Origin: Chrysochromulina tobinii
Taxonomy: Eukaryota
DNA: 49,406 nt
Direction of reading: 5' to 3'
NCBI GenBank assembly: GCA_001275005.1
Contig: JWZX01003226.1
Location: 1 to 49,406 of the forward strand
Shown: positions 4,890 through 26,240 of the stretch, in pieces
How positions within the stretch are numbered: position 1 is the stretch's first letter
Layout of the letters: every line of letters starts with the position of its first letter
Notes under the pieces: model-generated
The model's input: the letters and a program-made list of their open reading frames with translations, nothing else
What the model was told of the DNA's origin: nothing
Database searches by the model: none
Position numbers and translations under genes: made by a program

Positions 4890-6650
4890 GGGGAACGGGG
4901 AGTGTGCTTTTTCTATGTCCACGTGCCTTGGCCGACACCGCCCGGGCACATGAGGAAGGAAGAGGTCGCCCGGGCGCCGCTTTCGTCCGGCTGCACACGC
5001 TGTCCGTTCCGCGTCCAACTCGATCCGAACCCTTGCGGCATCATCCTTGGCCGCGTCGCGCTCGGCGCGGACGGCTTCCACTCCCAGCGAGGCCGCGACG
5101 GTGGCGGCGGCGGCTGTGGCCTGTCTGCGGCAGCCGCTCGGTCGTTGGCGGCTAGAAGTCATTCTTGTGACGGTCCGCGTGGCCTTCTCGACCGCCACCA
5201 CCTTGCACCGCAGCCACCTAAAATGGGAGGCTCCCCACTTCCGCTTCCCACGGCGCGAGGTCTGAGACATGCCGGGGCTTCCGGAACCCACCGGAGCATC
5301 ACCGGAGTACCGACCTTGAGCTGCCTAAGCACGCGCTCCGACCCCGAGACGTCACGGTGTGCGCCCTCCTTGCCTTGTGCATGACGCATGGCGATGGACG
5401 CACTCGCGCGCCCGGTACCCCCGCGCTTCGCTCCGCGTCCCCGCTCTACTTCGCCTTCGGACGGGCGGACATGCTGGGCAGATCCTCGCCATCGCTGGCC
5501 CAAGGCGTCTCGGACAGCTCGGTGTTCCAGGCCGAGAGGGCCGTCGCCAGGTGTTCGTGGAGGCCCAGGCGGCCGGCTCTCTCGACGAGGGCCCTCGCGT
5601 CCTGGTACTTGCAGTACATGATGTTCTTGAACTGGCGGACGATCGCGTCGGAGGTGCTCCCGATGGTGCACAACTTGAATCTTCGCCTTGTGGCGATGGA
5701 CGCACCGAAGATCAACCTGAACGTGGCCGTCGGGAGCGCAGCGAATGAATCTGTGTTATCGTAGTACCCGTTGACGATATCGCGTGCTTGTTTGTGCTTC
5801 GCCGCATGCAGTGGCTGCTTGCCAAGCGCTTTCTTCACGTGAGTGTAGAATGTGGTCTTTCTCGAGGACGAGATTTCAAGGGCGATGAGACTGCTGATGC
5901 CCGCGAAGATCTGTGTGTTGTACGGAAGTGTTCCGTGGCGACTGGACAGCGCCTTCAACCCCATCACGAGTTCCGGGATGCGCTGAAAGTGCTGTGGTGC
6001 AACAAGCACTTAGGAGCGCCGCCGCGCTCGTCACCTCGTTTCTGATGTCGCTGGCGACTAGAACAGTATGATATGTCGACGTTGCCAGGCACCCTTGCTT
6101 CTTGTTGAGGAGGTCCGTGAGCTGCCTGCTTGCCGTCATGCCGACGTTGAGGAAGATGAGCTGGAAGTTGGCCTTGAGGAGGTAATCGATGACCTTCATG
6201 TTCAATCTAAAGCCGTCAGCGCGGATCTTCAGGGTCTTCCCCCCAGTTGGATGTCGGAGGTGATGACGTCGGACAGCGGGTAGGCTGACCCTTCGAGGGC
6301 GGCTGTCAAGACCTGTGGAGGCAAAGGGTCAGGATGTGAGTGTTGTAGGTGACGGGGAAGAAGGGCATGGGCTCAATCATATGGTGCCCAACTTCTTCGC
6401 CTTGTAGGCGGCCGTCGCCACCGACCCGTCACCACCGACGACATCCCCGATGCATTCGCCGCCGCCGCCGCCGCCGCCGCCCTCAAACCCGCCGCCTCCG
6501 CCACCTCCGATGACCTTGTCGCCGCCGCCGCCGCCACCCTCGCCGCCGCCGCCGACGACATCGCCGCCCTCTTCGCCACCGCCGCCTCCTCGACCACCGC
6601 CGGTCCGCCGCCACCTCCGTCATCTTCCCCGTTGCCTTCGCCGCCATGGC
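4890..6650 (-). pseudogene. Degenerate, frameshifted spliced gene of unknown family
   Basis: Protein-like segments in different minus frames (4770-5291, 5159-5450, 5446-6009, 5876-6205 and upstream VLTAALEGSAYPLSDVI). A 43-nt GT-AG intron (5992-6034) joins SDIRNE to HFQRIPEL; a second intron-like segment (~6315-6392) has a CTGAC branch point and CACAG acceptor. Other joins need frameshifts. Confidence 0.35.
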
Positions 6651-7632
6651 CGCCGCCTCCTCCGCCTCGTGTTCACATGAGCAGCGCCTCGTGGCACAGT
6701 CCGGGGATTTGTCACCAACTAAATTTCACAGATGGTTTTTTACATATTCATACCACATTTGGAAATTGCGACGGGCGAGCGGCTGGAATGCAAAAGTCGC
6801 AAAGGCCGTCGCCCTCGTGCCGCTTCTCGGCCGAGATATCCGGCTTTCGCGTCGGCACAGACCGCGCCTCCGCCACCACATTCAGCACCTTGGACGCTGC
6901 GCAGCACGCATGCCTCGAGCTGGGCGCCGAGTGCGGCGGCGTCACCAGCTCAAAGCACGACACCTTTGAGGCGCGCAAGGGCAGCGAGCCGACGCCCTCG
7001 CCGACTGGCGCCGGCGCGTGGATGAAGCTGTGCGACGGCGGCACGTGCGAGCTTGAAGACGGTGTATGGTATTGGGGCGCTCACCTTCGCACGGTGCCAC
7101 ATTTGGCTGACGCCTCGAGCTGCTGCGACATGTGCATCGCATCGCCTGCATGTGTCTCGTTCAATTATGAACAATCGGGCGGCGGCAACGAGAAGTCGTG
7201 TGCGCTGTTCGCCTCGCGCACGGAGCGACACGCAGACGCTGGCTTTACTGCGGGCACCGTCCTGCGCAGCCCGAGCCCACCACCTCCGTCGCCGCCGCTC
7301 CCGCCGGCGCCACCGTGGCGGCCGCCCTCGCCGCCACCGACGCCGTCACCGCCGCCGCCCTCGCCGCTGCCGCCACCGCCCTCGCCGCCGCCACCGCCGC
7401 CACCGCCAACGCCGCCACCGCCGTGCCCGCCTTCTCCCTCGCCGCCGCCGCCGCCGCAGCTTGCGCTCCAGCCGGGCAAGCCGATGTTGTTGCAGGCCTC
7501 GTGCTCGTCACTCACCGTGCAGTGGGCGGAGGCAGCGCTGCCCTCGCGCGTGCTCGAGTACGTCGTCACGTACGGCCCCACGGAGGAGCGGAGCGGTGCG
7601 CGAGCCACCGTGCGCGTGGATCCGACCAAACG

Positions 7633-7663
<31 letters not shown>

Positions 7664-10600
7664 AATGGCGGCCGCAACGGAGCGGGTACTGGCGGCGGCA
7701 GCGATGGTGCTGGCACTAGCGACGCCGGCGCGCTCACCAACCGCGTGGAGCTCATCGGCCTGCACGCGGGCGCCAACTACACGATCAGCGTGCGCGCGCG
7801 CACGGCCGAAGGATCTGGCCCAGTCTCGGAGCTGCTGCTCGCACGCACGATGCGACCGGCTGACTTTCCGATGCCCTTGCCGCCGCCGACGGCCGTGCAG
7901 TCGGAGGGCTGTACGGCGCTCCGGCTGCAGCTGCCCGTGCTCTGTTCGTGCGCGCCCGAGCCGCGCACCACATGGGACCTCGAGCTGGCGCGCGACGGCT
8001 CCGATGACTGGCGTGTGCTCGTCGCCGACACGGCAGGCGGCAGAGTCTCGGCGTTTGGACTCGATCCTTACGGCTCGGTACGCTTCCGGCTGAGTGCGCG
8101 CACGCCCGTGCCGTCGCGCCCGGAGCCGCGCGTTGTGCTGGGCGATGCATCGCCACCAATGCTCGCCGGCCTCGGTGCGGCGGCGCTGCTCCGCCCGCCA
8201 GTCGCCTCGGTCACCTCCTCGGCCTCGATCGAGCTCTCTTGGAGCGGCGCCTTTGACAGTTGCCGCACGCTCACGAGGTGGCAGATCCAGTACACGCGCT
8301 CGCAGGTGAGCGAGGGCGCAGGCGAGGCCGAGCCGGGCGGTGCCTCCGCTTGGGGTGCTCGCCATCTCGTTTTGGGAGGGCTTCGTGCGCCCCCCTCGCC
8401 CCCCTCGCCCCCCTCGCCCTTCCCGACCTTGCCGCTGCCGCCGCCTTCACCGCCGACCCCGCCTTCACCACCGCCGCCTTCACCGCCGCCGCCTCCGCCG
8501 CCGCCGCCTCGACTCGAGACGCCGCCGATTTCGTCACTCGAGACGACGCCGATTTCGTCACCCGAGACGCCGATTTCGTCACCCGAGACACCGATTTCGT
8601 CACCCGAGACGCCGATTTCGTCACTCGAGACGCCGCCGATTTCGTCACCCGAGACGACGCCGATTTCGTCACCCGAGACGCCGCCGATTTCGTCACCCGA
8701 GACGCCGCCGATTTCGTCACCCGAGACGACGCCGATTTCGTCACCCGAGACGACGCCGATTTCGTCACCCGAGACGACGCCGATTTCGTCACCCGAGACG
8801 CGACGACTCACAGACGCCGTCGCGAGCACGTGCTCGGGCGTCCTCTCTGCCGATGGCGCCGCGTGTTGCGCGAGCATGTGTGGCAGGTGCGGCGGGGCGG
8901 GCTGTTCGGCACGGCCCGGCGGCGCCGCGCGCTGCTGCCCCGGCTGGAAGGAGTTTGATGGGCTCGCTGGCCTCTGCGCAGTCACGGGCGGCGCGGCGCC
9001 TTGTTTGACCGACGACCTCGGCGCGGTCAGCTGTGCTCATGGGTTCACACGCGTCGGTGACGAGTGCCTACGCGCATTTAGTGAAGCGATCTCCCACGGG
9101 CGAGCTAGCGAGCAGTGCCGACGTCGCTGGGCCGCTGAGCTAGTGAGTCTGCGCAACGTCGCGACACAGGCGGCCGCGCTGCGCTTGTGTGACGCGGCCA
9201 TCGCCCCAATCAGCGCCGCGGCAAGCGGGCCGGCCGGCGCGGCTTCGGCGGCCTCGGGCTGCTGGGCTGGGGCGAGCACCCGCAGCTGCTCGAGCAGTTA
9301 CGGCGAGCGGCACAAGGGCGACCCTATCAAGGAGGTGAACGCTGTGGACGCCGTCGAGTGCTGCGGCCGGTGCGCAGCCGAACCCGGCTGCCTCCACTAC
9401 ACCTTCGGGTCAGGTGCGCCACGTAGCACGTGCGAGCTCTATGCAGCGGTGGACGGTAAGCTACCGGCCGCGGACGACGTCGTGGCGGGCACCCTGCTAG
9501 GCGGACCGTGGGCATGGGCTGACGGCGGATTGCTGCAGCATGAGGAACATCGCGCCTGGGCACCTGCGCAGCCTGACGGTGCCGATAGCAGCGGCAACCG
9601 CATCATTGGCGTTTCGTGCCTTGAGTTGCTCTCGAGCCGTGGCGTGGACGCAATGGCGCGTGGCAAGTGGGCGGATGCACCGTGCGTGCAGCCCAAGCCG
9701 TTTGTGTGTGCGCGGCCAGCGGACTTAGCCATTCCCTCGCCTGCGCCGCCGCCCTCGCCCTCACCGCCGCCCAGCCCGCCGCATCCGCCGCCAAGTCCCC
9801 AGCCCAAGCCCCCACCCTCGCCGCTACCGCTCCCACCGCCGCGCAAGCCGCCGCCACCACCGCAGCATCCCCATCCGCACCCAGCCCCCATCCCTTCGCC
9901 CTCGCCCTCGCCGCCGCGCCCTCTGCGGCCGCCGCCGCCCCCGCTGGTGCTGCCGCCCTCGCCGCCCCCTCCGACAGTCCCATGCTCCTCGCCTCATGAG
10001 AGCGATACGCGGGTCGAGCGCTGTGCCGATCGCTGCCACATCGAGACCCTCGCGACCGACTGCGGCTGGTGTGAGTGCAAGGCGTGCGACTTTTGTCGCC
10101 GCTTCGCCGCGGACGCACACGCGGTATGGCGCTCGCTACCGTTTGACGGCGCAGACGACGCGGGCGCTGTCGCGGACGGCGCCTTCGCCTCATCGTCTGC
10201 GAGTCAGCGCCTGGCCGCGGCGGCCGTGCCCCCTTCGAGCGTGCGTACTCTCTCGCCCACAGAGCTCGAGCTCGCGGCCTTTCGCTGCCCGCCGCCCGCT
10301 GGCTGCCGCTTCCGCTTCCGGCCACTGAACGTGCACGGCTGGCACGACTGGTCGCTCAGCAGTGACAGGGCCACAACAGACCGGCTGCCCTCGCCGCCGG
10401 CGCACGCGCTGCGACTGGAGATGCGTCTCCTCGCGCCGTTCACACGAGAGCGCTCACTGCTCGAGGAGGTCCTCCTGCGCGACCTCGCCAAAGCGCTTCG
10501 CATCCCGCGAGCCTCCATCCGGCTCGTCGAGCTGCGTCTGGCCGCCGAGTACGCGACTGTTGATCTCCTTGAGCCAGGAGCCTACACCGCGGCAAGCCGC

Positions 10601-11260
10601 TTCCACGAGCTGCTGCGCTCCCCTGGCTCGGTCCTCTTCCGCGGGCAGGCGGCGCGCGCCATCGATGCCGCTGCCGGGCTCAGCATCATCCACGCTGATG
10701 GCAGCGCCGCGCCCTTCCAGCCTCCAGACGAATTCGAATGGCCGACGATGCAGTCTATCCTCGCCTCCGCTGACGAGTCCATCGAGCTCGCCATCGGCAT
10801 CGGGCCGAGCCATCCGTTCTTCTGGCCCGCAGCCGGCGTGCTCATCGCCATCGCCTGCGTGCTCTTGGGCTGCTGCTGCTGCTGTGCGTCTCGTTTGGGC
10901 GCCTGGGCAACGCGGCCACGGTACAAGTACTCGCGCACGCTGCAGTCCTCGACGACCGACGGGGTGGACGAGGATGATGCCGACGACGCTGACAATTGGG
11001 TCAAAGAGCGCCCGTCATGGCGCCCTCGCGCCGCTCAGGATGAGGGTACCGCCGCCGACAGCGACGCAGAAGACGAGCACGAGCACGAGCCCTCGTACCG
11101 TATCGTCTTCCCTGACGGCACCGGCGGCACCGGCGGCACCGGCTCTAGGCCATCGGCAGTGGAGGCTCTCAGCCAGGCGGCGCGGGCGGCGGGGGTAGTA
11201 CTGCCCATCGCGTCACCGGCGGGCCGAGGTGCTCATAGCGAGGACATAGTCAGCCTGTAG
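6632..11260 (+). CDS. Large single-pass cell-surface/adhesion protein: PAN/apple modules, FN3-like domains, split C-type lectin, Cys-rich modules, Pro-rich stalks, C-terminal TM
   Basis: 1542-aa ORF; PAN-like CCDMCIASPACVSFNY and CCGRCAAEPGCLHYTF; FN3-like SLTVQW...LIGLHAGANYTISVRART; CTL-like WAPAQPD...C...GKWADAPCVQPKPFVC; TM AGVLIAIACVLLGCCCCC followed by an acidic tail. True start probably ATG 6788; no obvious signal peptide. Confidence 0.75.
8513..8800 (+). repeat. Coding minisatellite, 12 copies of a 21/24-nt unit (CCGATTTCGTCACCCGAGACG core) encoding [P/L]ET(P/T)PISS
   Basis: Counted directly in the sequence; units differ by a 3-nt indel so the frame is preserved. Confidence 0.95.
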
Positions 11261-11703: not shown

Positions 11704-12528
11704 TCACTTGGGACGGAAGGCGGCCGCTGCAAATTCGTAGTTGAAGAGCTGCTGCACCTCTGGGAATAGGAAGATGGGCCTGAACAGCCATGGCGTGATC
11801 TCGATCACGGGGCGCCCCGTGACGGCCTCTTCTATTACAAAGGAGGTCACGGCGATCATCGCCAGCCGGCCGTTGTTGATTTCGCGGGTCTGCATCGCAC
11901 GGCGCGCCTCGAGCGAGGCACCGCCCAGCAAATTTAGAGGGTCGAAGCCAAAGTCGCCAGGCATCCAATCGTCGGTGCCCTCGCGCAGCTTCAGCGAATA
12001 TGCATCTACGACGGCAATGCCAATCGCGAAGAGGCCCAGCGTCGCCGGGATTGTGCTCTGGTCCAGCCCACCGTTTAGGACTGATGGAGAGCGGCCGCCA
12101 GTCTCAACGAGCAGCAGCGGCTCGCGCAGAGCGCGGCTAAGGACAGGTGATAGTAGTTCCTGCACCGGCCATGCGAGTGCGGCAAGCATGGCCAAGCGGC
12201 CATGACGCAGCTCCGCCTCACGGTAGTCACGCAGGACGTAGGCTCTCGGCCTCGCCTTGTCAAGGGCGCTGCCAAGGTGCAAGTCGCGCTCCGCAAACTT
12301 GAACGGGTCAAAGCCGTAATCGGCCACGAAATTGTAATCCACCCAGCTCTGTGAATTAGGATTGAAGTCGTCCGGCATGTCCTCCTCCTCGTCGTCAAGA
12401 GGCAAGTTTCCAAGCGCTTTGAGGAGCTCATCCAGGGTGGGTGGTTCCTCACCCGAAGCCTGCAGCCGTGGCAGCGGGACGCGTGCGGCGGGCGCGGCGA
12501 GACGCGCAACCATTACCTGAGAGCGCAT
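11704..12528 (-). CDS. Light-harvesting chlorophyll a/c-binding protein (LHC superfamily, Lhcz-like)
   Basis: DYGFDPFKF, YREAELRHGRLAMLA, PSVLNGGL, PGDFGFDPLNL, EINNGRLAMIA motifs. Confidence 0.93.
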   Translation of the reverse strand: MRSQVMVARLAAPAARVPLPRLQASGEEPPTLDELLKALGNLPLDDEEEDMPDDFNPNSQSWVDYNFVADYGFDPFKFAERDLHLGSALDKARPRAYVLRDYREAELRHGRLAMLAALAWPVQELLSPVLSRALREPLLLVETGGRSPSVLNGGLDQSTIPATLGLFAIGIAVVDAYSLKLREGTDDWMPGDFGFDPLNLLGGASLEARRAMQTREINNGRLAMIAVTSFVIEEAVTGRPVIEITPWLFRPIFLFPEVQQLFNYEFAAAAFRPK

Positions 12529-12789
12529 TGGGTTCCTTCCTTGTGTCCTTGTGTCACACCTTGTACCGGTAACCGGTTCTCTGTGAACGTTAACGCGACA
12601 CGTTCACATTCACGTTCGTTAATCTCGGCAAGACGCGCATCCACCGGTCCCATGGAGACACTCCGTGGAAGGCGCAGACAAACACATACACTCCGGGGGT
12701 ACCCCCGGGGTCGGAGGAGACATCAACAACACGTCAGGGGCACAGGAGGCGCCAATTCATGAACATGCTCATGCAGGCGCCAACTCATG

Positions 12790-13060
12790 AAAGGATGGTC
12801 ATGGACATGGCCGCGAGCGCCGGTGGTTTCGGCGGCCAGGAGGGAGACGCCGACGCCTTTTGAGGGCGTCGGCGAACTGTCCGTCGCACGCAGCGACGAT
12901 CAAGCGGGCGCCTGTGACGCAGAACACGCAGTTGTAGGGCGCGTCGCCGAGGTTGCCGACCTGCTTGAGGCCGAGCACGAGCTTGCGGAGCTTTAGGGAG
13001 CTTCTCCTCCGTGCGTCCAAAGGCGTAGACGTGGCCCTCGGCGGTGGACGGTACCGACAT
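12790..13060 (-). mobile_element. Possible degenerate retroelement C-terminal fragment
   Basis: Frameshifted peptide STAEGHVYAFGRTEEKL/RKLVLGLKQVG...DAPY...DGQFADALKR.../LLAAETTG resembles, from memory, the C-terminus of haptophyte non-LTR retroelement ORFs; no RT core seen. Confidence 0.3.
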
Positions 13061-13184
13061 GTCCTGTCTCCGTTTCATGCGTTTCCTTTCCTCAGCATGC
13101 ACCATGCAGCACACACAGCGAGGCACTGCTCAAATCAGATGGCGACACCTGGTTGCCGTGCACCCTGTTGCCGTGCACCCCGCC

Positions 13185-14643
13185 TCATTTGCTTCGCAAG
13201 CAAGTTTCAATGAGCAGATCAAGCACATCATCGGGAAACTTCATGCTGTATTTGTTCAGCCACAGCAGCAGCAAGACAAATCGCTGGGTGGTGACGTTGA
13301 ACATCAAATGATCTTTGCGAGACCAATTGACCACATCCCAGACTTTGATCGTCCCGTCGCACGATCCCGACATAATCTTGGGCCCGTCCGGGGAAAACGC
13401 CACCGACATGATTGGTAGGCTGTGGGCGTCCGTCTTCTCGCTCAACAGCTCCAGTTTGTCTGCCAGGCAAGCCATATGGCGTCAGCGTCAGTTTTGGCCA
13501 AGGAGGGGCGATTCGAGGGCTCTGGCGCACCAAAATCCCAGACTTTGATCGTCATGTCGTGCGATCCGGACACAATTTTGGTCCCGTCCGGGGAGAACGC
13601 CACCGACCTGATGGTGTCGCTGTGGGCGTTCGTCTTCTCGCTCAAGACCTCCAGCTTGTCTGCCAGACAAGCCAGCAAGCGTCAGTTTTGGCCAAGGAGG
13701 GGCGATTTGAGGGCGTAGTGCACCCGAATCCCAGACTTTGATCGTCTTGTCGTCCGATCCCGACACAATCTTGGTCCCGTCCGGGGAGAACGCGACCGAA
13801 TTGACGTCCCCGCTGTGGGCGTTGATCTTCTCGCTCAGCAGCTCCAGCTTGTCTGCCAGACAAGCCAACAAGTGTCAGTTTCGGCCAAGTAGGGGTGATT
13901 TGAGTGCTCCGGCGCACCTGAATCCCAGACTTTGATCGTCTTGTCGTGCGATCCTGACACAATCTTCGTCCCATCCGGGGAAAACGCAACCGACCAGATC
14001 ACGCTGCTGTGCGCGTTTGTATTCTCGCTCAGCAGCCCCAGCGCGCCTGCCGGACAAGCCAGCAGGCGTCAGTTTTGGCCAAGGAGGGGCGATTTTGAGG
14101 GCTTTGGCGCACCCGAATCCCAGACTTTGATCGTCTTGTCGTACGATCCCGACACAATCTTGGTCCCGTCCGGGGAAAACGCCACCGACGCTACGCAGTC
14201 GCTGTGGGCGTTCGTCTTCTCGCTCAGCTCCTCCAGCTTGTCTGCCAGACAATCCAACAGGCATCATTTTTGGCCAAAAGAGGAGGGGCGATTTTGGGCT
14301 CGCGGCGCACCCGATTCCCAGACTTTGATCGTCCTGTCGCGCGATCCCGAGACAATCTTCGTTCCGTCCGGGGAGAACGCCACTGACATGACCCAGCTGC
14401 TGTGGGCGTTGGTCTCCTCGCTCAACATCTCCAGCTTGTCTGCCAGGCAAGCGAGCAAGCGTTAGTTTTGGCGGAGGAGGGGCGATTTTGAGCTCGCGCC
14501 GCACCTGAATCCCAGATTTTGATCGTCTTGTCCTCCGATCCCGACACAATCTTGGTCCCGTCCGGGGAAAACGCCACCGACATGACCCAGCTGCTGTGGG
14601 CGTTTGTCTTCTCCGTTAAACACTTGATGAGCGTCGCGATCAT
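13185..14643 (-). CDS. Seven-bladed WD40 protein (HET-E/NWD-type repeats), one repeat per exon, with a short helical C-terminal tail; predicted 352 aa
   Basis: Exons 14643-14505, 14439-14311, 14241-14113, 14046-13918, 13852-13724, 13659-13531, 13459-13185 sum to 1059 nt (353 codons, in frame). Introns are GTGC...CTGAC-like...GGCAG, phase 1. Repeat consensus [32 protein letters not shown]. An acceptor just before the ATG (14645-14646) means an upstream exon may exist. Confidence 0.88.
13330..14615. repeat. Tandem array of 7 ~195-bp units (129-nt exon + 64-71-nt intron)
   Basis: Recurrent CCCAGACTTTGATCGTC, CCGTCCGGGGA and intronic TTTTGGCCAAGGAGGGGCGATT at ~195-bp spacing. Confidence 0.95.
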
Positions 14644-15790
14644 CCTGCGAACGAACGAGAGAGAAGAAGAGAGGCTTTAGGCTGCATGCGTGCATTCGGT
14701 AGCATGGAGATATGGGACCACAAGCGGCTTCAAGCTCGAAGGGCACTTGAAGTGCCTCGGGGCAGACATGCAACAGCCAACAGAGTGCCGCAAGGTTAGG
14801 GGACTCGCGTGCGGCGTGTGGCTCCGAAGCTCATTGCGAACGGAGAGAGTCGCAGGCCCTCGAGAGAGAGGCAGCCCAGCTCAGGGTCTCAGCAGGATTG
14901 GGCAGTCACGTGGCAGTGGAGCGCGCGGGGATGGAGAAGAGGGAGACGCATGTGTGCTCCCTCCAGAGTTTTTTCCGGAGATGCAGGAGTAGAACCCGCA
15001 ATGCCCAATAGAGTAAAGCACCTGAGCGGTCTCGATCGATTCCGTGTGCGAAGGCGGTGCGGTGTGCGCGTGCAGCGATCGCACCGACGCACGTTGCGCG
15101 CGCGCACGAAGCGGAGCGCGACGCACGCAGCACGCCCGACATAAAAACTCGCGTCATCATGAATTCACAACACGAATTCACACAACACGTAAACGTTCAC
15201 ATCCAAGAGGGCCATGAAGGGCTCATCGCATCCCCCCCTCTACGGGAGGGCTAGATTTTCCGTTCGATGCCCGCACGTGTTCGGACCAACGTCGAGACTG
15301 AAGTGTGTGAAGACTCTGTAGCTTGATGATTGTACGTTTTGAATTTAGAATTAGAACAGAACTCAGAAGTATCTTACTCTTTCCGCTCGCGTAAATACTT
15401 GCAATTTCCGATGCGGTGCGGTGTTTGTGACCGGCGTCGGTCGACGCGCCGACCGGCTGTTACAGCTCGCCGCGCAGCCGGTATCGGGGCCTTGGCTAAG
15501 TCGGCGCCGCACGTGTATCCCGCCACCACGACGACCAGGCTCCGCTCGACTTGGCACTCGAAACACACCGCACAGGCACCGCGCCTAACAAGAGCCTCTA
15601 CTCTCGGCCCCGCATCTCTTTCAAAGCGCCGCAACCCCAATATGCACGCGATCAATCTCAGGCCAATTGTCGGGTGGGGTCGTCGGCGCGACCAAATCCA
15701 AATGGACACGCAGGAGGTGATGACGGCCTACTCATCAATGCACAGAAAGATTGCCGTACCTGCGATGCGCGAGTTGCATACACAGCTCAG

Positions 15791-16177
15791 TCACGCTCGT
15801 GCTTGGCTCGGGTAACGTTTCAGCTGCACGTACTTCTTCTCGGACTGCGCAGCTGCAGCCGTCTCGTCTGCCATGTCAGCAGCGAACGTGCGGGCATCGA
15901 TGCTGGCGGCACCCTTCATTCCGGTAGTCCCAAATGGGCTCACAATCGAACGAGGGTCCCAGATGATGCCGTTGTAACCCCGCGAGCGACCCATGGGGGT
16001 ATCGCTGAATCGTGCGTCGAAGATGGAACGACCATTGGGGCGCGGGTCTCTCATCTGCGAGCTGGTGCTCCAGGCGCTGGGCACGATCCCCATGTCCTCC
16101 TCGTGGGCCATAGAGTAAGGCGAGTAAATTTTCCTCCCTTGAATTCCATACTTCGGAGGGCTCCCCATGAACTCCAT
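15791..16177 (-). CDS. Small hypothetical protein (~128 aa), head-to-head with CFAP54
   Basis: Protein-like composition (MEFMGSPPKYGIQGRKIYSPYSM...), unlike the Arg/Ala-rich shadow ORFs; no family recognised. Confidence 0.5.
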   Translation of the reverse strand: MEFMGSPPKYGIQGRKIYSPYSMAHEEDMGIVPSAWSTSSQMRDPRPNGRSIFDARFSDTPMGRSRGYNGIIWDPRSIVSPFGTTGMKGAASIDARTFAADMADETAAAAQSEKKYVQLKRYPSQARA

Positions 16178-16446
16178 CGCGCCGCTCGCTCGCTCGCTCG
16201 CTCGCGCCGCCTCCCGGCTACCGGGTACCCGGAGAGACCGTGCCTCAACCCCGCGATGAAGTTTGCGCAAGTTTAGAAACGGTCGGGAAAAATAAGAATT
16301 TGGCTTCAGCGTCGTTGTTTACACCAGCAGACCGCTCCCACATGAACATCTGTGAACATTCTCCCGACACGCCGTTGCGTCCACCAGTCGACCCCTTCGC
16401 GAACGCTGACGAGCCACTTGCCGCACCTCCTCAGCGCCAACGTAAA

Positions 16447-19400
16447 ATGGCCGAGAAGAAGCCTGGCTTCGATCCTGCCGCGTACTTCGAGAAGATGTTC
16501 CGGAAGTTCGAACACACCGCCGCATCGGGCTCGCCGGAGCTCCAGGCCACGGTCACTTCCTCGCTGCTCGAGCTGCTCTCGACCTACCGGCTCAAGCTGC
16601 AGCTTGGCGTGTACCAGGAGCGACTCGTGCAGTCGGGCCGGATCATCGCGTCGCTTGGCGACTATGAGCTCGCGCTCAGCGAGTGCTTCGCGCCGATCCT
16701 CGGCACAGCCGAACTCGAGGCCAAGGGGATGGGCGCCATTCGGCTGCGCGTGCTCGCCGAGTTTGGCTCCGTCGAGTGCAGCTTCGCGCTGCTCGACGAG
16801 CGCGACCCGTCGGTGGCGCACGCCGCATCGACGGCCACGGTGCGCGAGCTCCTTCGACGCGTGCGCGTGGGGATGGCGTCCTGCGCCAAGCACGAGACGC
16901 TCTACTGGCTGGTGCTCAACGGCACGCGTCTGGCATACAGCATGTGCACCCGGCTAATGCGGCCGGAGCGCGCGGCTGAGGCGATCGAGACGCTCGGCTG
17001 GTGCGCGCTGTGCATGGAGGGCATGCTGCCGCTCCTCGCGCCGCGCTTCCTCATGTGGCGCATCCAGCTCTACGAGGCCCTTTGCCACTGCTACGAGGCG
17101 GTGGGCATGGTGGAGGCGGCGGCCAAGGCGGCCACGCACGCACTCGCGCGGTACACGCAGCTCAAGAACTACGACAAGCACGACCCGGTGCCGCCGACGG
17201 CGGAGATGAACGCGCGCTATGATCGCGCCGAGAAGGCGCTCGGCGCCCTTCGCTTCAAGTACGTGACGTGCCTTGCACCGCCCAAGGGTCCTTCCCCGGA
17301 GGAGTTGGCAGCCGCCGCCGCTCCCGCCAAGGGAAAGCCGCCGGCCAAGGGCGAAGTCCCGCCGCCTCCGCCGGAGAGCGGCCTCGTCGTGGCGCTCAAA
17401 GAGACGGTGGGCGAGGCGCCCACGGCGCAGCTGGTGGCGGTGCTCGAGGCGCTGCACGACTACACGACCAGCGCACGCACTCTCGCGACGGCGCCTCCCT
17501 CCGAGGCGCGCGAGAAGATCGTCTCCGAGCTGCTCGCCAAGGGCATGGAGCTTGCGGCGAGCTCGCTCGCGAAGCTGACCGCACACGAGGAGGCCAAGCT
17601 CGCCCTCGCTCTGGCGAACGAGCAGGCGGCGAGCGCGCAGGCGGCGGCGACGACGGCGCAGGCGGCGGCCGAGGCGGAGGCGGCCGCAGCGCCACTGGCA
17701 GAGGGCGCGCCACCCTCGCCCGTCGCGGCCGCGGCCGCCGAGGCGCAGGCGCAGGCGCAGGCGTCTGCGGCGGCGCTCGAGGGTTTGCAGGCGGCCGAGG
17801 CGGCGGCGGCCGCGGAGGCTGCGGCCGCGACACAGGCTCTACCGCTGCCCATGCACGTACGGCTCCTGTGCGCCGCCTTCAAGAACCAAAAGTGGGACGA
17901 GGTGAGCATGCTCGCTGATGAGCGCTGATTACCGCTGATTACCGCTGATGAGTGCTGATGGCGTTGCATGCAGGTGAGCATGCTCCTGCCGGCAGCGCAG
18001 GCGCGTGTTGACCGTGCGTGCCCCGAGGCCGCGGCCGCGGCCGACCGGAGCGCGGCGGCGGTGGGCGGGGCGACGCTGGGGCGCACGATGCCGATCGCTC
18101 CTCCGCCGCCTCCGCAGGCGGTGAGCGCCACCACCTCCGTCACCTTCGCTGCCGACCATTCCAAGCTGACCTTTGCCCAGGACGGCGCCACTCTCGAGGT
18201 GCACGAAGGCGCAGGGGAGGCCGCGTCGACGGCGGCCGCAGCGGCGGCGGCCGCGGAGGGGGTGCCCGACGCGGCCATGGCTGCCATCCTGTGGCTCGAC
18301 GTTCACGTACTCGCCGCCTATCGTGCCATCGACGAGGCCGATGAGGCCGCCCGCTACGATGCGATGGCCGCCCTCGCCACGCTGCTCGATCTTAGCGCCA
18401 CGTCAGGCGTGGTGAGCGGCGCGGCCGCGGCGCGCAAGGACCTCCTCGCCGACGCGGCACTACGCCTCTGGACCCTGTCGGCTCCTGCGCTCGTGGCCGC
18501 CGACATCGATGCATGCACCCAGCCCGACACGGCGGCCACACAGCGGCAGCGCTCGATGGGCGGCGCGGCGGCGGCGGGGGATGGCAAGCTGCGGCTGGTG
18601 CTCAAACCCAAGACGGCGGTGGACGCGCAGAAGCTCGCCGAGCAGCTCGCACGTATGAACAAGGTCGATGCCTCCTTCAGCTTCGTCGTGGCCGATGCCC
18701 CCAAGGGCAAGAGCGCAGGCGGCGCACCCATCACCATCTCGGGTGCGGGCGAGCTCGCCGTGCTCTCTGTGGCGGACAAGGCGCGCAAGGAGTCGGGCGC
18801 GCAGTGCACCCAAGGGCCGCTCCTCTCAAAATCGCAGACCGCCGCCGCCGCGACGGCCGCGACCTCCACGGCGGCGCTCTCCCGCACGACCGGTGCCGGC
18901 GCCAACGGCGACGGCGCGACGCCGTTGACTCGCATGACGCCGGCACAGCTGGTGAGCGTGCTGCGGCCGGTGCACGTGACGCTTCGCCAGGTGGATGCGA
19001 CGGATGCGCAGCTGCGCGCCACGATCGCACTCCGGCTCACCAGCGTGCTCCTCGACCTGGCGAAGCCCGACCCTGCCGTCGCTGTTGCGCGCGCCGCTCT
19101 CGCCGACCTTGAGGCTGCGCGCTCGGCGGCGGTCGTGCAGATGGCGTGGAGAGGTCTGCAAGGCGCACCCTCCGCGTCGGCGACGAGCGTGCTGCAGCCG
19201 GCGGATGGGCCGGCGCCCTTTTACACGCCCACGGACCTGCTCCTCCAAACCCTCGGCTGCCAGCATGCGGACTTGCTGCTCCTCCTGTTCCGCGCGGAGC
19301 TGCAGTCGGGCATGCGCAAAGCCATCAAGCAGGCGAAGGTCGAGTTCGACACCTTGCGCGCGGCGCAGCTGCGTCGGCGGCAGCAGCAGCACATCTACGG

Positions 19401-22400
19401 CGTCAAGAGCCGGCAGGACCTGATGCGAGAGGCGGAGGAGGACGCAGCGAGCGCGGCGGTCCCCACGACGGCGCCCGCCACCGAGACGAAGCTGCTCGGC
19501 GAGTTCGGGCACGACAATAGCGCCAAGGCGCTGCTGCTGCTCGAGATCGCGTGCTACCACGAGCAGGCGGAGCGCGAGGGGCTGCTGCAGCAGGCGGCGG
19601 ACGCACTCCTGGCTGCGCAGGCGGACGAGTACAGCTGCGCTGCCGCCGCCTCGTCGGACATTTCGCGGCTCGCACGCGCCTCCTCGGCGTCCTCGAGCGC
19701 CTCCCTCTCGAGCGGCCCGCGCCCCCCCGCCGTGCCCAAGCCCCCACAGCTCGTGTACCGCACCCACGAGGCCATCTGCGTGCGTGTGCGCCCGTTTTAC
19801 CCGTCGCGTGGCCCGGTGGGACCAGGCGGTGTCGTCGCTCCGGCGCCGGTGCCGTCCAAGTTCGCCGTGTATGCCAAGGAGGCGGGCGTCGGTGTGGCCG
19901 TCTCGCTCAACAACAAGGAGCTGCCTGGCACCGGCCGGCCGCGTGCGCCCCGTGTGGGCATCGACGCGTTCGATCCGCTCGCCGACTGCTTCGTCATTCG
20001 CGGCCTGCCGCACGGGAAGCCGATCGTCATCGCGGCGGCCGCCTTCGACGCGGCAGGCGACGTCATTGGGGGGATCGGGGACATGACGAGTGAGATCGTG
20101 ACGGCGCTCCCGCTGCCTCGCACCCTGCTCTGGGCCTATTTTGCACGGCACGCGTACCAACTCGGCGCGCCGAAGCTCGCGCGGCGCGGGCTGAGCGAGG
20201 TGCAGAAGGCGATCCTCGCGATCACTCCGTCGCTCGATCTGTGGCAACAGAGCCCACTGCAGCGGCTGCGGCTCGTGCAGAAGCATTGCGCGTACCGCGC
20301 GGCCGCCGAGCTGCGCGCCGCGGCGCAGGCGCTGCTGCTCGCGCCCGCGCTGCGCGCCGCGCTCGGCGGCGTCATCGTCGCTGGCAGCCGCTCGGCTTCG
20401 GCCGTGGCGGCGCTCGAGCAGTTGCATGAGGCCCAGCAGCTGGTGCTCTCGATGCAGCTCGCGATCACCATCGACGACGCGCCACTCGCGGCGAGCGCCG
20501 TGCAGGCAGTGTATACGGCACTGACGCCACTGCTCAAGCCGCGCCAGCGCACCGTCTTCGTTCTGCAGCCACTCTCGGCCTGCCTCGCCACGCTGCAGCT
20601 CCTTGGGCCTGAGAGGCTGCTCACCATCCAGCGCGCCCCGCAGCTGCTCGCGTGCGTGGGCTTTGAGCTCGCCACCCTGAGCAATGAGTGGGGTCTGCAC
20701 CAGCTCTCATTCAAGGCCGCCGCGCTCGACGTCGCCGGCTTCGCGGCCGCGCTCGCGCTCGCGAACAAGGCCAAGGCCACCCAAGCGGGGTTGGCCGAGG
20801 AGGCGGTGGAGGCGGCAGGGTCGATTGACGAGGCGGATAAGTTCGCGGGCGTGCTCTACGCGGAGTACGTGGCCTCACAGCCGCTGCTCGCGCCGCATGC
20901 AGCGCCGCTCGGCGAGGCGGGCGCTGGTGCGGAGCTCGGCGTCAAGCTGTGGAAAGCTCTCAGCCAGTCAGAGGACGCGACGTGGCAGATGCTCGACTTG
21001 GCCAAAGGAGACACGCGTGCCTTCGAGTTCACAGTGCGCGCGTGCGAGCTGATCCTGAACTCAACGCCTACCGCGGCCAAGGCGACGCTGATCAGCGAGA
21101 AGCTCACGACGGCGCTCGCGCAGGCGGCCGAGGGCGCGCGCTACAAGCAGCTCAGCGAGTTCCTCGCGGAGCGTCCGCTGCCCGACGTCGGGTCGGAGCC
21201 GCCTCCGCCCACCGAGGGACAGACGGCGGAGGAGGCCAAGGACGCATGGGAGCAGAGAAAGTATGGCGCCATCTTTGTGCGTGGGATGAAGGCGCTGTGG
21301 GCGCGCATGCTCGATCGGCGCCAGAAGCGCATCCTGCATTTCCAGCAGCGCCCGTGGCGCGCGCTCGCTCGCACGCTACTCGCGCGCTGTGCGCACTTCA
21401 ACCCTCCGCCGCCACCGCCTCCCGGCATCGGCGAGGACGGAAACCCCTTGCCGGCGCCGGCGCCGCCGCCCGAGGGCGCGCATGTGCTCAAGGAGCTTGC
21501 ACGCGGCGCCGTGATCGCGGAGCGCGCCGAGTGCCCTGCGATGCTGCTGCACACGTGCGCGCAGCTGCGCAACTTTTTCGACCTGCTGCCCGCCGCCGTC
21601 GAGTGCACGCTCGCGTACGGCCGGTTCGAGGCGATGCCTCGTGCCTCCCAGGCCGACCCGCCCGACCCGCCGCCCGCCATCGTGCCCGCTCTGTGGAAGC
21701 CGCTCGCGCGTGCCTCGCAGGCGCTTCTGTCGCTCCTCGGCCAGCTGCACGGGGGGCTCCCTCTCGGCGGACGGGACCCCTTTGCTCTTGCGCTGGCAGG
21801 CACCTCCGCCGCGGAACTCGCCGTCACTGCCGAGACCGACGTGCGGCGCGGCGCTGGCGTGAGCGAGGAGGATGTGTCCACGCACGTCAAGGGACCGAAG
21901 CGCTGGTTCGAGACGCGCGATACAGCGTATGACGTGGAGCCCCTCAATCTCGACTGGATCTGCGACTTTGTGCACCTGACGCTGCGCCAGCTCCAGCTCG
22001 CGCGCCGTTGGCGGCTAATGGCTGAGCTCGCCCTCAGCTTTGATGATCTGACCGAGGGCACGTACGGCACCCGCATGCTCCCGTTCCTGGAGCAGGCGCA
22101 GCAGAAGCTGCATGCCACCAAGTGGGCCGATGGCAACGCTCTGCCGCAGGTCGCCAAGCGCGTCGCCGAGCTGGTGCGCGATCAGAGCGCGTGCGTCCAG
22201 GCCATCGAGGCGTGTCGCAAGGCCGTGCACGCACTGTGCACGCCCGGCGGCGGCGTGGGCAACGGGTTCAGCCTCGATGGCAGCGGCACGGTGGCTGAGA
22301 AGCGCTCGGCGGCGCTCGAGCGGGCGCACCACCTATGCAAGGAAAGTGCGACCCTCTGCCGCTCGCGTCGCGAGACCACCATGCTGATCGAGTCTCTAGG

Positions 22401-25400
22401 GACGCTCGGCTCGCTGCAGCTCGAGGATGGCAAGGTGAGTCGGGCGGCCGAGGCGTGGAATATGGCCCTCGACGACATCTTCAACACGCAGGACGTGACG
22501 AAGCTCTGGCAGGGCCTCTTTGCGCCGACGGCGCCGCCGCTTCCCGCCAAGTACTCGTTGGCCGAGATGGGTCGCGCGCTCGCGGTGCTCGGTGGGCTTG
22601 CTCGCCATACGACGTCCCATCGATTGGAGCGTCGGCTGCAGCACGCCCTCTTCGCGTCGCACCTGTGCGTGTCCATCACGTCCACGTCGATCACGCACCC
22701 GTCGCGTCTCATCGACTGGGCCGGCTACCGGCTGACCGAGCTGCCCGCGGGCACGCTCGATGCCAAGGGCGGATGGCCGGATGGCTGCAAAGGTATGGTC
22801 GTGCAGCTTGAGCTCCTCGACGGGCTGCATGCGCTCGCTACGACGCTCCTTCAGTACGAGCTACCGCTGCGCGCGCTGCCGATCCTCGCGATCCTCAAGC
22901 ATCTGGCCACCGACGTGGCGCGTGACGTGACGCATTCGGTCGGCGCCGATGCGCTCATGCTCATGGCCCTCACGGCCCTTGGCCAGCTCGATCACGCAAG
23001 CGTGCTGCTCGCCAATGCGCTCGCGGGCGCCGACCTGCCGCGCGATGCGCTGGAGCTCCTCCCCCCCCCGCCTCCCACCGAGGGCGCTGCGCCGCCGCCG
23101 CTCAAGGTGCCGCCCGCGCCGCCGCGATTCTTGGTCCACCTGACGCCCGAGAGCGCTGAGAATGCTCCCGCAGTGCGTGTGATGCTCGAGGCGACGGCTG
23201 CGCCCACCGTGGTGTCACAGTGCGATCCCGCCGTGCTCAAGCTTCTCAGCCTCGCGCGTGCCGCGCTGCTGCTGCGCCTCACCGAGCGTGTGTCGCCCGC
23301 CGCGGTCGCGGACATCGCGGCCAAGGCCGGCGGCGCCGCCGCGGACGCTGCTGCTGCTGCGGCGGCCGCGGCCGCCGCGCCGCCTGCCAAGGGAGGCAAG
23401 CCGCCGGCGAAGGGCGAGCCGCCGCCTCCCGAGCCCGTGGCGGCCGGTGTTGGGGCGGCGGACATTCTGCGCGCGGTTGAGCTGCTGCTCGACAGCGTAG
23501 CCGCGCCGTCGGCGCCGCGCGCCGACGGCGCGCCGCCGAGCGCGGCGGAGCTCGCGGCGACCTTTGCACTGCGGTGCGACGAGGCCATGCTCCGTTCGAC
23601 GCTCGCTCTGCGGCGGGGGCTGCCAGCGGACGCGATCGCGCCACTCAAAGAGGCTATGAGTGGCGCGGTGCCCGCTTTGCCGTGGGGCAACGACGGCGAG
23701 GGCGGCGGCGGCGGGAAGGTGGGGCTGCTACTTCCGTCACTGCAGCCGGGCGCGCTGCACTGGCTGCGACTGCGCGCGGCGCTGGCGACCGTCTGCCTGC
23801 AGCAGGGGCAACTCAAGGCGGCGCTCGAGCAGATCGACACGGGGCGCACCGAGGCCAACCGCGCGCACGACAAGCGGGTGCTGCGCCAGCTGCTCCTCGT
23901 GCACGCGCGCGTGAAGCTCGCAAATGGCGAGCTGCCAGCGGCCGCCGATGCGCTCAAGCTCTGGCTCGAAGACGCGTCGAGCGCCACCGCCGCCGACGCC
24001 GTGACCGTCGCGGGCGCCTCCATGCAGTACGCGGGCGCGATGCTCGCACTCAGCGCCGCCTTTGGCGGCGTGGGGGGCGGCGCGGGCGCTGCCAAGATCA
24101 TCGCGTTGCTCCGTGGTGCCGAAGCGACCCTGCGCGCGGAGTCCGAGGCGCTCGGCATGGTCTCTTCCGAGCAATGGCCATGCCTGGTTCAGCCGACGCC
24201 CGGGGCGCAGGGGCCCTCCTCGCCCGTCCACGTGGGTGCGCTCGACAACCTGTACCTGCGCCCACTCCAGCCACTCGTCGAGGCGAAGCTCAAGCTCGCT
24301 GTAGGGCTGCAGCTGACGAGTGCGGCGCCGGCGGGGATGGCTGCACACGCAGCCACGGACGCGTCGGTTCAACTGCTCACCGAAGCGGCTGCGCTGCTCA
24401 AGCGCACGCTGCATCCGCGCCCCACGCTCATCGCGAACGTGCATGCGGAGCTCGGTCGCGCTTTCGTCACCCAGTCGCTGCGCGCGGCGGTTGGCCCATG
24501 GGGCGGCGCCACGACTCTCAATGACGCTACGGCGGCCGCGGCCGAGGCGGCGGCTGCGGGTGCCGCGCGGCCCTCGACGCCAGCCGAGCAGTGGGGTCCT
24601 GACGGACGGCGCGTGCCGCCGCCCGTGCCGCCGCTGCCCGTGCGCGCAGAGGCAGCGCTCCGCACAGCGCTGGTCACGCTCGATTCGTGCGAGCAAGTGG
24701 AGCCCGCCCTCGTGCAACGCATCGCCCTCGAACTCGCACGTCTGCACGGCGCGGGCCTCGTGCCCGGCACCGAGCTCGAGCGAGAGTGGGTCGCCACGTG
24801 GGTGCCCGTGCCGCGCTCGCTCGAGCTCGGTGCCGCCTATGTGCGCCGCGCGGCGCTCTGCGGCGTCGGCCGGCGCGCCGTATACGCCGAGCTGCTCGCC
24901 CTCACGCCCTCGCCGCCCCTCGACGCGGCGGTGCCCCTGCCCAAGCCCCTCGCGGACGAAGCGGTGCAGGCCGCGTCGCTCGCCGCTGACCGGCCCAACA
25001 CGATGCCTGACTCGCGCGACGAGGGCAAGTCGGCGCGGGACCTGTTCGGCCTCGCTGCGGCGCTCAATAGGACGCGTGAGCTGCCCCACGTCGACCAGGA
25101 CGCCGTCGAGCGCAAGCAGCTGCTGCTCCATGGGTTCCTCAAAAAGGCATGCAAGCCGTTTGCGGACGCGCTCGTGCCGGCCGCGCCGCCGCCGGCGGCC
25201 GAGCTCAAGCTCGAAGTACCCGCGGGCCTCGCCACGTTTCAGTGGTATGATGCGACGCCCACGTTTGGTGGCGTGGTGGTCGAGAGCACCCTCACCCTCT
25301 TCTATGTGCTCGGCCATGGTGGCGAAGGTGCCTTTATGCTGGGCACGCTGGTGCTGCCGCGCGCGGGCGTGCTCGCCACAGCGCGGCTCCTCCAGCGGCA

Positions 25401-25779
25401 TCTGCTCGCCGCGGGCGCGGAGGCGGCCGTGGCAGCTGCGGCCGCCGCGGCGGCCCCTCCACCAGCCAAGGGAGGCAAAGGAGCACCACCTCCTGAAGAG
25501 CCCAAGCCGCCGCCCAAGCTCGATTGGCTCATCGAGTGCACCGACGCCGTCAAGGAGCTGCTGCAGCCGCCCGCGACGGCGCCGCCCGAGGAGACGCCGC
25601 CGCCCGCGGACGACGAGGAGGACGCCGAGCCTCCGCCCCCGCCGGTGGACTATGCCGCGGCGGTCGGCCCGGGCGCACTCGAAACGCTCGCCACCCTCTT
25701 CGACCCGCTCACGGGCGGCACCATGACCGATCCGGCCGTGTGCGCCTGGCTCGCGTCGCTGCTCGTCAGCAAAAAGTGA
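16447..25779 (+). CDS. CFAP54: Cilia- and flagella-associated protein 54 (central pair C1d), two exons with intron 17902-17973
   Basis: N-terminal DUF4486-like motif LYWLVLNGTRLAYSMC...LGWCALCMEGMLPLLAPRFLMWRIQLYEALCHCY; removing the 72-nt intron joins the 562-aa and 2603-aa ORFs in frame (~3090 aa); later AAFDAAGDVIGGIG...IVTALPLP segment also fits the family. Confidence 0.88.
17902..17973 (+). other. 72-nt spliceosomal intron with internal GCTGAT repeats and a duplicated junction
   Basis: GAG|GTGAGC...TGCAG|GTG; contains in-frame stops; removal restores the reading frame. Confidence 0.9.
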
Positions 25780-26240
25780 GCAGGCTTGGCGCTGTGTCGT
25801 TGTGGGATGAGGGAGAGGCTCGACGTATGAGCGATCATCGCATGAGTCGCGGCCGCGTCGAGTGCACGTGGTGGTGTATCCTCCAAGTGAGAATCGAATA
25901 AGTGCAAGAGCGGAAAATTCGAAAGTAAACGCCCCCCCTGTCCCGCTTGACCAGGTTTGTGTTGGCGATCTCCGGCGGCCCTGACCGCCTGACGAATCTG
26001 TTTCGTCGCGTCGTCTTGAACGGCGATTTGTTTCCGACACCCTCACGTCCTTGCCCAGGAAGGATACACACCGCGGAAAGGGACACGATTTTGTCGACAA
26101 GAATGCGGTACATTCAAGTGCCGCCGGTTGTCGCGTCTGATCTCTGGTCCGGCGGCGCGGTTCATGCTCCGTCCGATCCCAAATCCAAGGCTGCGGCTGC
26201 AGCTGCTGCAGCCGACGCGTGCGCGTGCGCGGCGGCGGCG

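Follow-up and report, generated by a model that had tools for sequence, protein, structure and literature searches.

A dispersed family of predicted seven-blade WD40 proteins in Chrysochromulina, with hypervariable positions on a candidate binding face and a conserved C-terminal tail

In a freshwater alga of the haptophyte genus Chrysochromulina, dispersed genes appear to encode stand-alone seven-blade WD40 propellers, hypervariable on their predicted binding face and closed by a short, constant C-terminal tail. The member described here lies in a window (the whole stretch of DNA that was analysed, 49,406 nucleotides) that most likely comes from this genus; the named matches were a protein of Chrysochromulina tobinii (P0013, with 84% across the tail) and one of C. 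parva (P0072). We favor the reading that these proteins would be variable receptors for foreign proteins, passing their catch to a ubiquitin ligase, but the whole chain is tentative and we place it somewhat short of probable. No description of a Chrysochromulina seven-blade WD40 family was found in the openly accessible literature on Chrysochromulina WD40 proteins or on haptophyte WD40/NLR immunity. Variable WD40 faces are common; what is new here is the architecture together with the tail.

The gene contains a tandem array at 13335-14613 on the minus strand with a period of about 194 bp (unit spacing 193-200 bp rather than 126-129). Each unit of about 195 bp is made of a 129-nt exon of 43 codons, encoding one WD40 blade, and a phase-1 GT..AG intron of 64-71 nt (Table 1). 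The six introns are all phase-1, sit at the same position of the unit and resemble one another in sequence, from which it follows that exon and intron were duplicated together. Splicing joins a frame from the ATG at 14643 to the stop at 13185, giving 352 aa with seven WD40 repeats, which match PF00400, and the 48-aa tail. The start motif of exon 1 recurs in 30 loci among the matches listed. In blade 3, as an example, the hypervariable codons lie at 14200, 14197, 14191, 14143 and 14137.

Table 1. Coordinates of the WD40 gene and its flanks in the window
Feature	Positions	Strand	Evidence or remark
5' flank, probable 5' UTR, common to family members	14645..15125	-	blastn 72-96%
Exon 1: ATG 14643-14641 and WD40 blade 1	14505..14644	-	PF00400, E 4e-14
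Intron 1, 65 nt, GT..AG	14440..14504	-	RNA-only joint 14440-14507, family level
Exon 2, WD40 blade 2, 129 nt	14311..14439	-	
Intron 2, 69 nt	14242..14310	-	
Exon 3, WD40 blade 3	14113..14241	-	
Intron 3, 66 nt	14047..14112	-	RNA-only joint 14048-14115
Exon 4, WD40 blade 4	13918..14046	-	
Intron 4, 65 nt	13853..13917	-	RNA-only joint 13851-13917
Exon 5, WD40 blade 5	13724..13852	-	missing in the allele-like contig L002
Intron 5, 64 nt	13660..13723	-	
Exon 6, WD40 blade 6	13531..13659	-	
Intron 6, 71 nt	13460..13530	-	skipped exactly by one mismatch-free RNA contig
Exon 7: WD40 blade 7, C-terminal tail and stop codon 13187-13185	13185..13459	-	
Conserved 48-aa C-terminal tail, predicted three helices	13188..13331	-	no family match
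Last tail helix with phi-P-x2-phi-x3-phi motif (F-box helix-1-like)	13200..13238	-	weak profile match
35 hypervariable codons (columns 15, 16, 18, 34 and 36 of each blade)	span 13353..14592	-	
Locus-specific 3' flank, probable 3' UTR	12961..13184	-	RNA-library contigs (DNA carry-over possible)

Splicing was assessed from RNA and DNA contigs aligned at 90% likeness. Thirteen of the 15 joints examined (45 were available) occurred in RNA only, mostly at or a few bases from the predicted intron edges, and two in DNA only; this evidence holds at the level of the family because paralogues co-map. At 99% likeness one RNA contig with zero mismatches skips exactly the 71 nt of intron 6, with 24 nt on its short side, and RNA-library contigs also contain the unique 3' flank, though DNA may have been carried over into them. 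Two family loci, L003 and L045, have their units spaced 129 nt apart and are therefore spliced transcripts; both read from the 5' flank directly into blade 1, and the first begins at window position 15082. The 5' flank contains a possible GT..AG intron (15020-14645), yet this was retained in two transcript contigs. Exon-skipping joints were discarded as a sign of alternative splicing, since in RNA contigs they are indistinguishable from transcripts of paralogues.

The gene has varied neighbors. Just downstream, at 11707-12534 on the minus strand, lies a gene of the light-harvesting chlorophyll a/b-binding family (PF00504, E 6e-28), which fits an algal host. A 114-codon stop-to-stop frame in the 3' flank (12785-13129, minus strand), overlapped by RNA-library contigs, may be just 3' UTR. 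On the plus strand, a 1635-aa open frame at 6353-11260 has fn3 and PAN domains and proline-rich stretches, like a cell-surface protein, and a CFAP54 ciliary gene (PF14858) occupies 16171-25779. Divergent from the latter is a 128-aa ORF on the minus strand (15794-16177) that matched nothing in Pfam or NCBIfam. The gene at 25929-28619 (plus strand) encodes an ankyrin-repeat protein with near-regular C-terminal repeats, a long helical N-terminal part and no tail motif.

The residues that the initial annotation had quoted after AHS (SWVM, SWVM, DCVA, SVIW, GDVN, DTIR and LPIM) were recovered in this order on the minus strand, as were those around the Asp (E-K, R-R, Y-K, H-K, D-K, H-M and C-G). The near-invariant scaffold that it had described holds for columns 12-42, but not for the N-terminal linker, which is moderately variable. 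Pairwise amino acid identity among the seven units was 0.93 in core columns 12-42, 0.64 at columns 2-11 and 0.14 at columns 15, 16, 18, 34 and 36; column 17 merely toggles between V and I. Of the 44 departures from the consensus, 21 sit in five of the 42 columns (permutation of the top five columns, p=5e-5). Taken over their whole length, the units share 81% of nucleotides and 76% of amino acids, the overall identity being somewhat below the approximately 85% quoted for NWD repeats. High internal conservation of WD40 repeats, a defining feature of the NWD class, was found in the window gene as well.

The fingerprint given in PMC3419727, where the top-face hotspots R1-2, R1 and D-1 of WD40 repeats are defined, places these hotspots at columns 16, 18 and 34; the remaining hypervariable columns, 15 and 36, are their neighbors. 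By these published sequence rules there is good support for the five columns forming the predicted top face. It is equally well supported that the seven blades would close one ring. For the divergent member P0072, AlphaFold gave a structure of beta blades with three helices in the tail (pLDDT 73, one blade being of poor quality), and this structure resembles seven-bladed propellers. The variable sites had further been proposed to correspond to those of HET-E. For fungal HNWD proteins, PMC12222747 lists positions 10, 11, 12, 14, 30, 32 and 39 as selected, which upon alignment on the His become our columns 14, 15, 16, 18, 34, 36 and 43. Five of these seven (positions 11, 12, 14, 30 and 32) coincide with the hypervariable columns, which bears out the proposal; unlike in HET, positions 10 and 39 were not clearly selected here.

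Scaffold and tail are under purifying selection, with a pN/pS of 0.32 for the tail over 38 sequences. The tail was modelled as three helices with a pLDDT of 74. It gave no informative family match in Pfam, NCBIfam, PDB sequences, the ESM Atlas or viral contigs, and when the window and the family loci were scanned in six frames with a profile, every tail detected belonged to the family. The 18 matches from a 1.84-billion library included more divergent tails, with identity as low as 40%, nearly all of them following a WD40 end. Fold searches returned generic helical matches only (best Z 5.2, rmsd 2.9 over 50 residues); F-box structures are missing from the fold lists, and this outcome is not evidence against an F-box. 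A transmembrane tail was ruled out: the hydrophobic helix tolerates Q and R at its middle, and no signal peptide or membrane anchor was evident. In a CaaX box the Cys stands at -4, where the conserved Cys of the tail is not found, and this option was ruled out as well.

A possible hint to the function of the tail comes from its last helix. The consensus phi-P-x2-phi-x3-phi, published for C-terminal F-boxes (PMC6232478), occurs there in 47 of 47 tails, a count that is partly circular since the locus tails were picked by a pattern requiring [FL]PD, and 12% of shuffled tails match too. With the motif beginning 14-21 residues from the C-terminus and an F-box measuring about 45 aa with three helices, only helix 1 could fit. 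The BC box [TSP]-L-x3-[CSA]-x3-phi, in the form printed in the same paper, was present in 0 of 47 tails, which leaves the tail without this mark of a SOCS or VHL box (Elongin BC) adaptor. None of the tails compared with Pfam (sets of 25 and 12) matched an F-box model, even with E allowed up to 10. We compared the tail with a profile built from an alignment of 16 motif-selected F-box-like sequences; in a Pfam check of 15 proteins (14 of the 16 and one other), 13 were recognized as F-box at E up to 0.1. The alignment of the tail to this set by hhalign had a probability of 6% (P=0.006, 11 columns), and another comparison reached 1.5%. On the profile, the motif-selected F-boxes scored 31-40 and the window tail 8.7, the latter value being attained by 2.4% of 678 control C-termini and by 12.6% of shuffled tails. 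Three divergent tails scored 16-17 on the F-box helix profile, the 99th percentile of the controls being 11.4. The resemblance is weak and constitutes a lead rather than a result. A protein of the viral collection (L113:250-423, minus strand) has an F-box-helix-like end after a hydrophobic helix and is loosely tail-like; its hhalign comparison was not significant.

If the lead is followed, the invariant tail might be a truncated F-box-like handle that binds Skp1, and the family might be a repertoire of SCF substrate adaptors. It would then be comparable to the nematode F-box adaptors, which have expanded under positive selection (PMC8120010), and the C-terminal F-box ankyrin proteins of poxviruses (PMC6232478), both of which also combine a variable substrate domain with a short conserved handle. 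Unlike those adaptors, the present family has no Pfam F-box match and room for helix 1 only, and its diversity would arise via exchange of blades. Alternatively, the propeller could detect non-self and the tail could dock on a separate effector or adaptor without any ubiquitin ligase, much like an NLR split into parts. The invariance of the tail, which implies one common partner, and its lack of a match to any ligase-adaptor family would suit such a detached sensor, as would the coincidence of the selected positions with those reported for HNWD sensors. No recurring NTPase or effector neighbor was seen beside the genes, however, their flanks differ between paralogues and no Walker-A motif was found upstream of 19 of 19 representatives, and we judge a sensor of this kind rather unlikely.

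Scanning with the tail yielded at least 59 loci. The tail was readable in 58 of them, which form at least 33 groups by their 3' flank; they were drawn from several samples and do not represent a count per genome. Summed contig depth in one DNA run (X1) was about 45 for the unique flank and about 3100 for the tail, which suggests many copies without giving a copy number. Among the matches listed, 20 groups had both start and tail: 14 with seven units, three with six, two with five and one with eight, some of the departures from seven being blast artefacts. The family loci in these matches contain 174 introns of the GT..AG type, 55-75 nt long. The genes stand alone at scattered sites, with no second array in 25 loci over 8 kb. 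They have about 450-480 nt upstream of the ATG in common and only a few dozen bases after the stop (about 30-60 nt in the case of the window's 3' flank). The 5' flank was matched by blastn in most loci with upstream DNA, and beyond 15136 in a single one (L001). Retention of this flank and of the introns shows that the members are not retrocopies. Inspection by eye of 18 upstream and 33 downstream flanks revealed no sharp common boundary or terminal repeat of the kind that marks transposon ends; a TTCACA-like word recurs, also by eye, just upstream of the common 5' block in several loci. The C. tobinii protein P0013 is annotated as UDP-N-acetylglucosamine diphosphorylase and starts with three WD40 repeats and the family tail; it probably represents two adjacent genes fused by gene prediction.

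Several observations concern exchange between the genes. Scaffold distances were about equal within (0.095) and between genes (0.102), and for 63 of 81 exons the nearest neighbor was found in another gene and at another position. Distances of the 5' and 3' exon halves were uncorrelated (r=0.01), and all four gametes occurred at 164 of 210 informative site pairs. There is good support for an exchange of exon-intron units between genes, each gene being a new mosaic of 35 residues. Repeats would hence evolve in concert within and between genes, with short-read chimeras as a possible contribution: PMC12222747 warns of short-read misassembly of such repeats, which could mimic shuffling and unit loss, but cannot create diversity per site. 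One contig (L002) resembles an allele of the window locus; it is without unit 5 and carries one R/M change at column 18.

At other flank-defined loci the alleles differ strongly (L015/L018 and L008/L010). Such divergence would be expected of receptors for endogenous conflict or self-recognition, i.e. in mating, allorecognition, hybrid incompatibility or the control of selfish elements, with the mechanism of the tail left open; fungal HNWD genes, too, were discovered as allorecognition genes according to PMC4986451. The lack of an evident signal peptide or membrane anchor speaks against this alternative, and a family of many loci would be more in keeping with broad surveillance than with recognition at one locus. 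We consider it improbable as compared to a role against pathogens.

Diversifying selection on the ligand-binding face, which the initial annotation had proposed, was examined in exons independent of the window. Of 263 blast units, those were retained that formed exons of 129 nt without gaps, had canonical ends and kept H13 and W41 in register. They numbered 164, of which 124 remained after removal of duplicates and of the window's own locus; the filter had dropped first exons, indel-bearing exons and three exons without the His. In this set, the five columns, whose choice was based on the window alone, show 12, 19, 17, 17 and 9 different residues; D, Y, R, W and M are frequent there, and the 124 exons comprise 121 distinct five-residue combinations. 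Nucleotide diversity at codon positions 1 and 2 of the five columns was 0.60, whereas 123 introns gave 0.16 and 14 fourfold sites 0.245 (Mann-Whitney p=2e-4). Likewise, pN per column was 0.43-0.69 against a scaffold pS of 0.257 (95% interval 0.19-0.33), i.e. 1.7-2.7 times the synonymous level and above the 99.9th bootstrap percentile of the scaffold pS (0.37). Matching exons by flank and position gave 21 pairs, not fully independent of each other, with a pN of 0.27 at the five columns, a scaffold pS of 0.10 and a scaffold pN of 0.017.

Tests on trees were less uniform. In a home-made MG94 grid test with one synonymous rate, omega was 1.5-2.3 on the tree of all columns, with columns 15, 16, 18 and 34 significant and column 36 not, and 3.6-5.4 on the tree from which the variable columns had been removed. 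When each site was given its own synonymous rate, the Bonferroni threshold was passed by column 36 alone, and on the second tree only. Recombination can inflate tree tests of this kind, and synonymous or intron sites constrained by GC bias or splicing can inflate the ratios. The proposal of selection thus stands on the excess of pN in 124 exons and on the hotspot columns, and at codon level with omega above 1 under a common synonymous rate, but is weak where synonymous rates are allowed to differ between sites.

These mostly non-significant site-specific, FEL-like tests would agree with a neutral by-product, in which young repeats are homogenized by gene conversion and the top-face residues are unconstrained or locally hypermutated. 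So would the variability of hotspots that is general in highly repetitive WD40s, as described in PMC5587647, and the frameshifts of some members, where units one base short (L003 unit 6, unit 1 in L008 and L014) reflect pseudogenes or assembly errors. Nonsynonymous diversity, however, exceeded every neutral proxy about twofold. At the five columns, pairs with the same residue showed few synonymous differences (0.01-0.13), and such differences were not raised in neighboring codons either, which makes local hypermutation unlikely. Retroelement-type mutagenesis specific for A was rejected as all four bases vary, and the 124 exons, a filtered set, contain 0 stops. We regard neutrality as quite improbable.

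The claim that did not hold was identity as an NLR protein of the HNWD type. No NACHT, NB-ARC or HET domain was found, and there is neither room nor a transcript for one: only three residues precede blade 1, and an in-frame stop lies 11 codons upstream of the ATG. Walker-A motifs were absent upstream of 19 of 19 representatives (18-6000 nt examined, the full 6000 for 12) and near the window gene. A true NLR whose upstream NACHT exons were missed, to which the repeat consensus and selected sites, resembling HET-E, would point, is largely refuted and very improbable given this stop, the mere 750 bp or so from the ATG to the point where RNA contigs of the next gene stop (15387-15391 in three of three RNA runs, itself a weak hint of that gene's 3' end), the end of family-wide sequence near 15130 and the lack of a NACHT Pfam domain in any tail-bearing protein among the matches listed (19 and 63). 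The consensus does resemble that of HET-E, but in a generic way. Counted by hand, unit 5 shares 22 of 30 core residues with the HET-E repeat shown in bioRxiv 10.1101/2025.01.13.632504, and 19 of 30 with the repeat of the cyanobacterial Nostoc protein 2YMU, the best PDB sequence match.

The family shares traits with several known systems. Like HET-E, HET-D as well as HET-R of Podospora anserina, it combines high internal conservation with exchange within and between genes (PMC4986451, PMC12222747). HNWD proteins differ in their HET and NACHT domains and in about 11 conserved repeats forming a double propeller, where our gene has one seven-blade ring of 43-aa units on their own exons and an additional C-terminal tail. 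The ROCO-LRR and NB-ARC-TPR candidate receptors of Ectocarpus, another alga, likewise have one repeat per exon, exon shuffling and diversifying selection on ligand-binding residues, here those of the predicted face (PMC3341825). In contrast to them, the repeats of this unicellular haptophyte are WD40 instead of LRR or TPR, no ROC-COR or NB-ARC domain is present and the introns are short and co-duplicated. Receptors of the Ectocarpus type have a reservoir of non-coding repeat exons; here, in 25 loci over 8 kb, no spare WD40 exon turned up in introns or on the opposite strand. The highly repetitive 2YMU and WRAP proteins also consist of near-identical blades whose hotspots vary (PMC5587647); the family is set apart from them by being eukaryotic, intron-split, large, dispersed and provided with a fixed tail. 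By analogy with these descriptions, it would function like the sensor domain of HNWD and be built like the exon-per-repeat receptors of Ectocarpus, as a member of neither.

Returning to variable receptors that hand foreign proteins to a ubiquitin ligase, the exchange of exon-intron blades would likely renew the 35-residue variable face. That the host has viruses is background knowledge, and an arms race with a virus or an intracellular parasite could plausibly, with moderate support, drive the diversification. A more specific version is conceivable, in which seven-blade propellers would, by the dozen and with their blades reshuffled one at a time, act as an antibody-like intracellular repertoire of interchangeable receptors for one SCF ligase, recruited via a new F-box-like C-terminal tail and destroying proteins of giant viruses or virophages; perhaps alternative splicing would also reshuffle the exon-intron cassettes. 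We consider this version possible, if doubtful.

In conclusion, we could identify a gene family that combines diversification of the HET-E type with the exon-per-repeat structure of brown algal receptors, without the NTPase switch. To our knowledge, it is largely unknown how unicellular algae recognize the viruses that control their populations. The family provides concrete receptor candidates with a code of 35 variable residues per protein. Their short constant tail offers a handle for pull-down of partners, and the host genus has named relatives in culture and genome collections.
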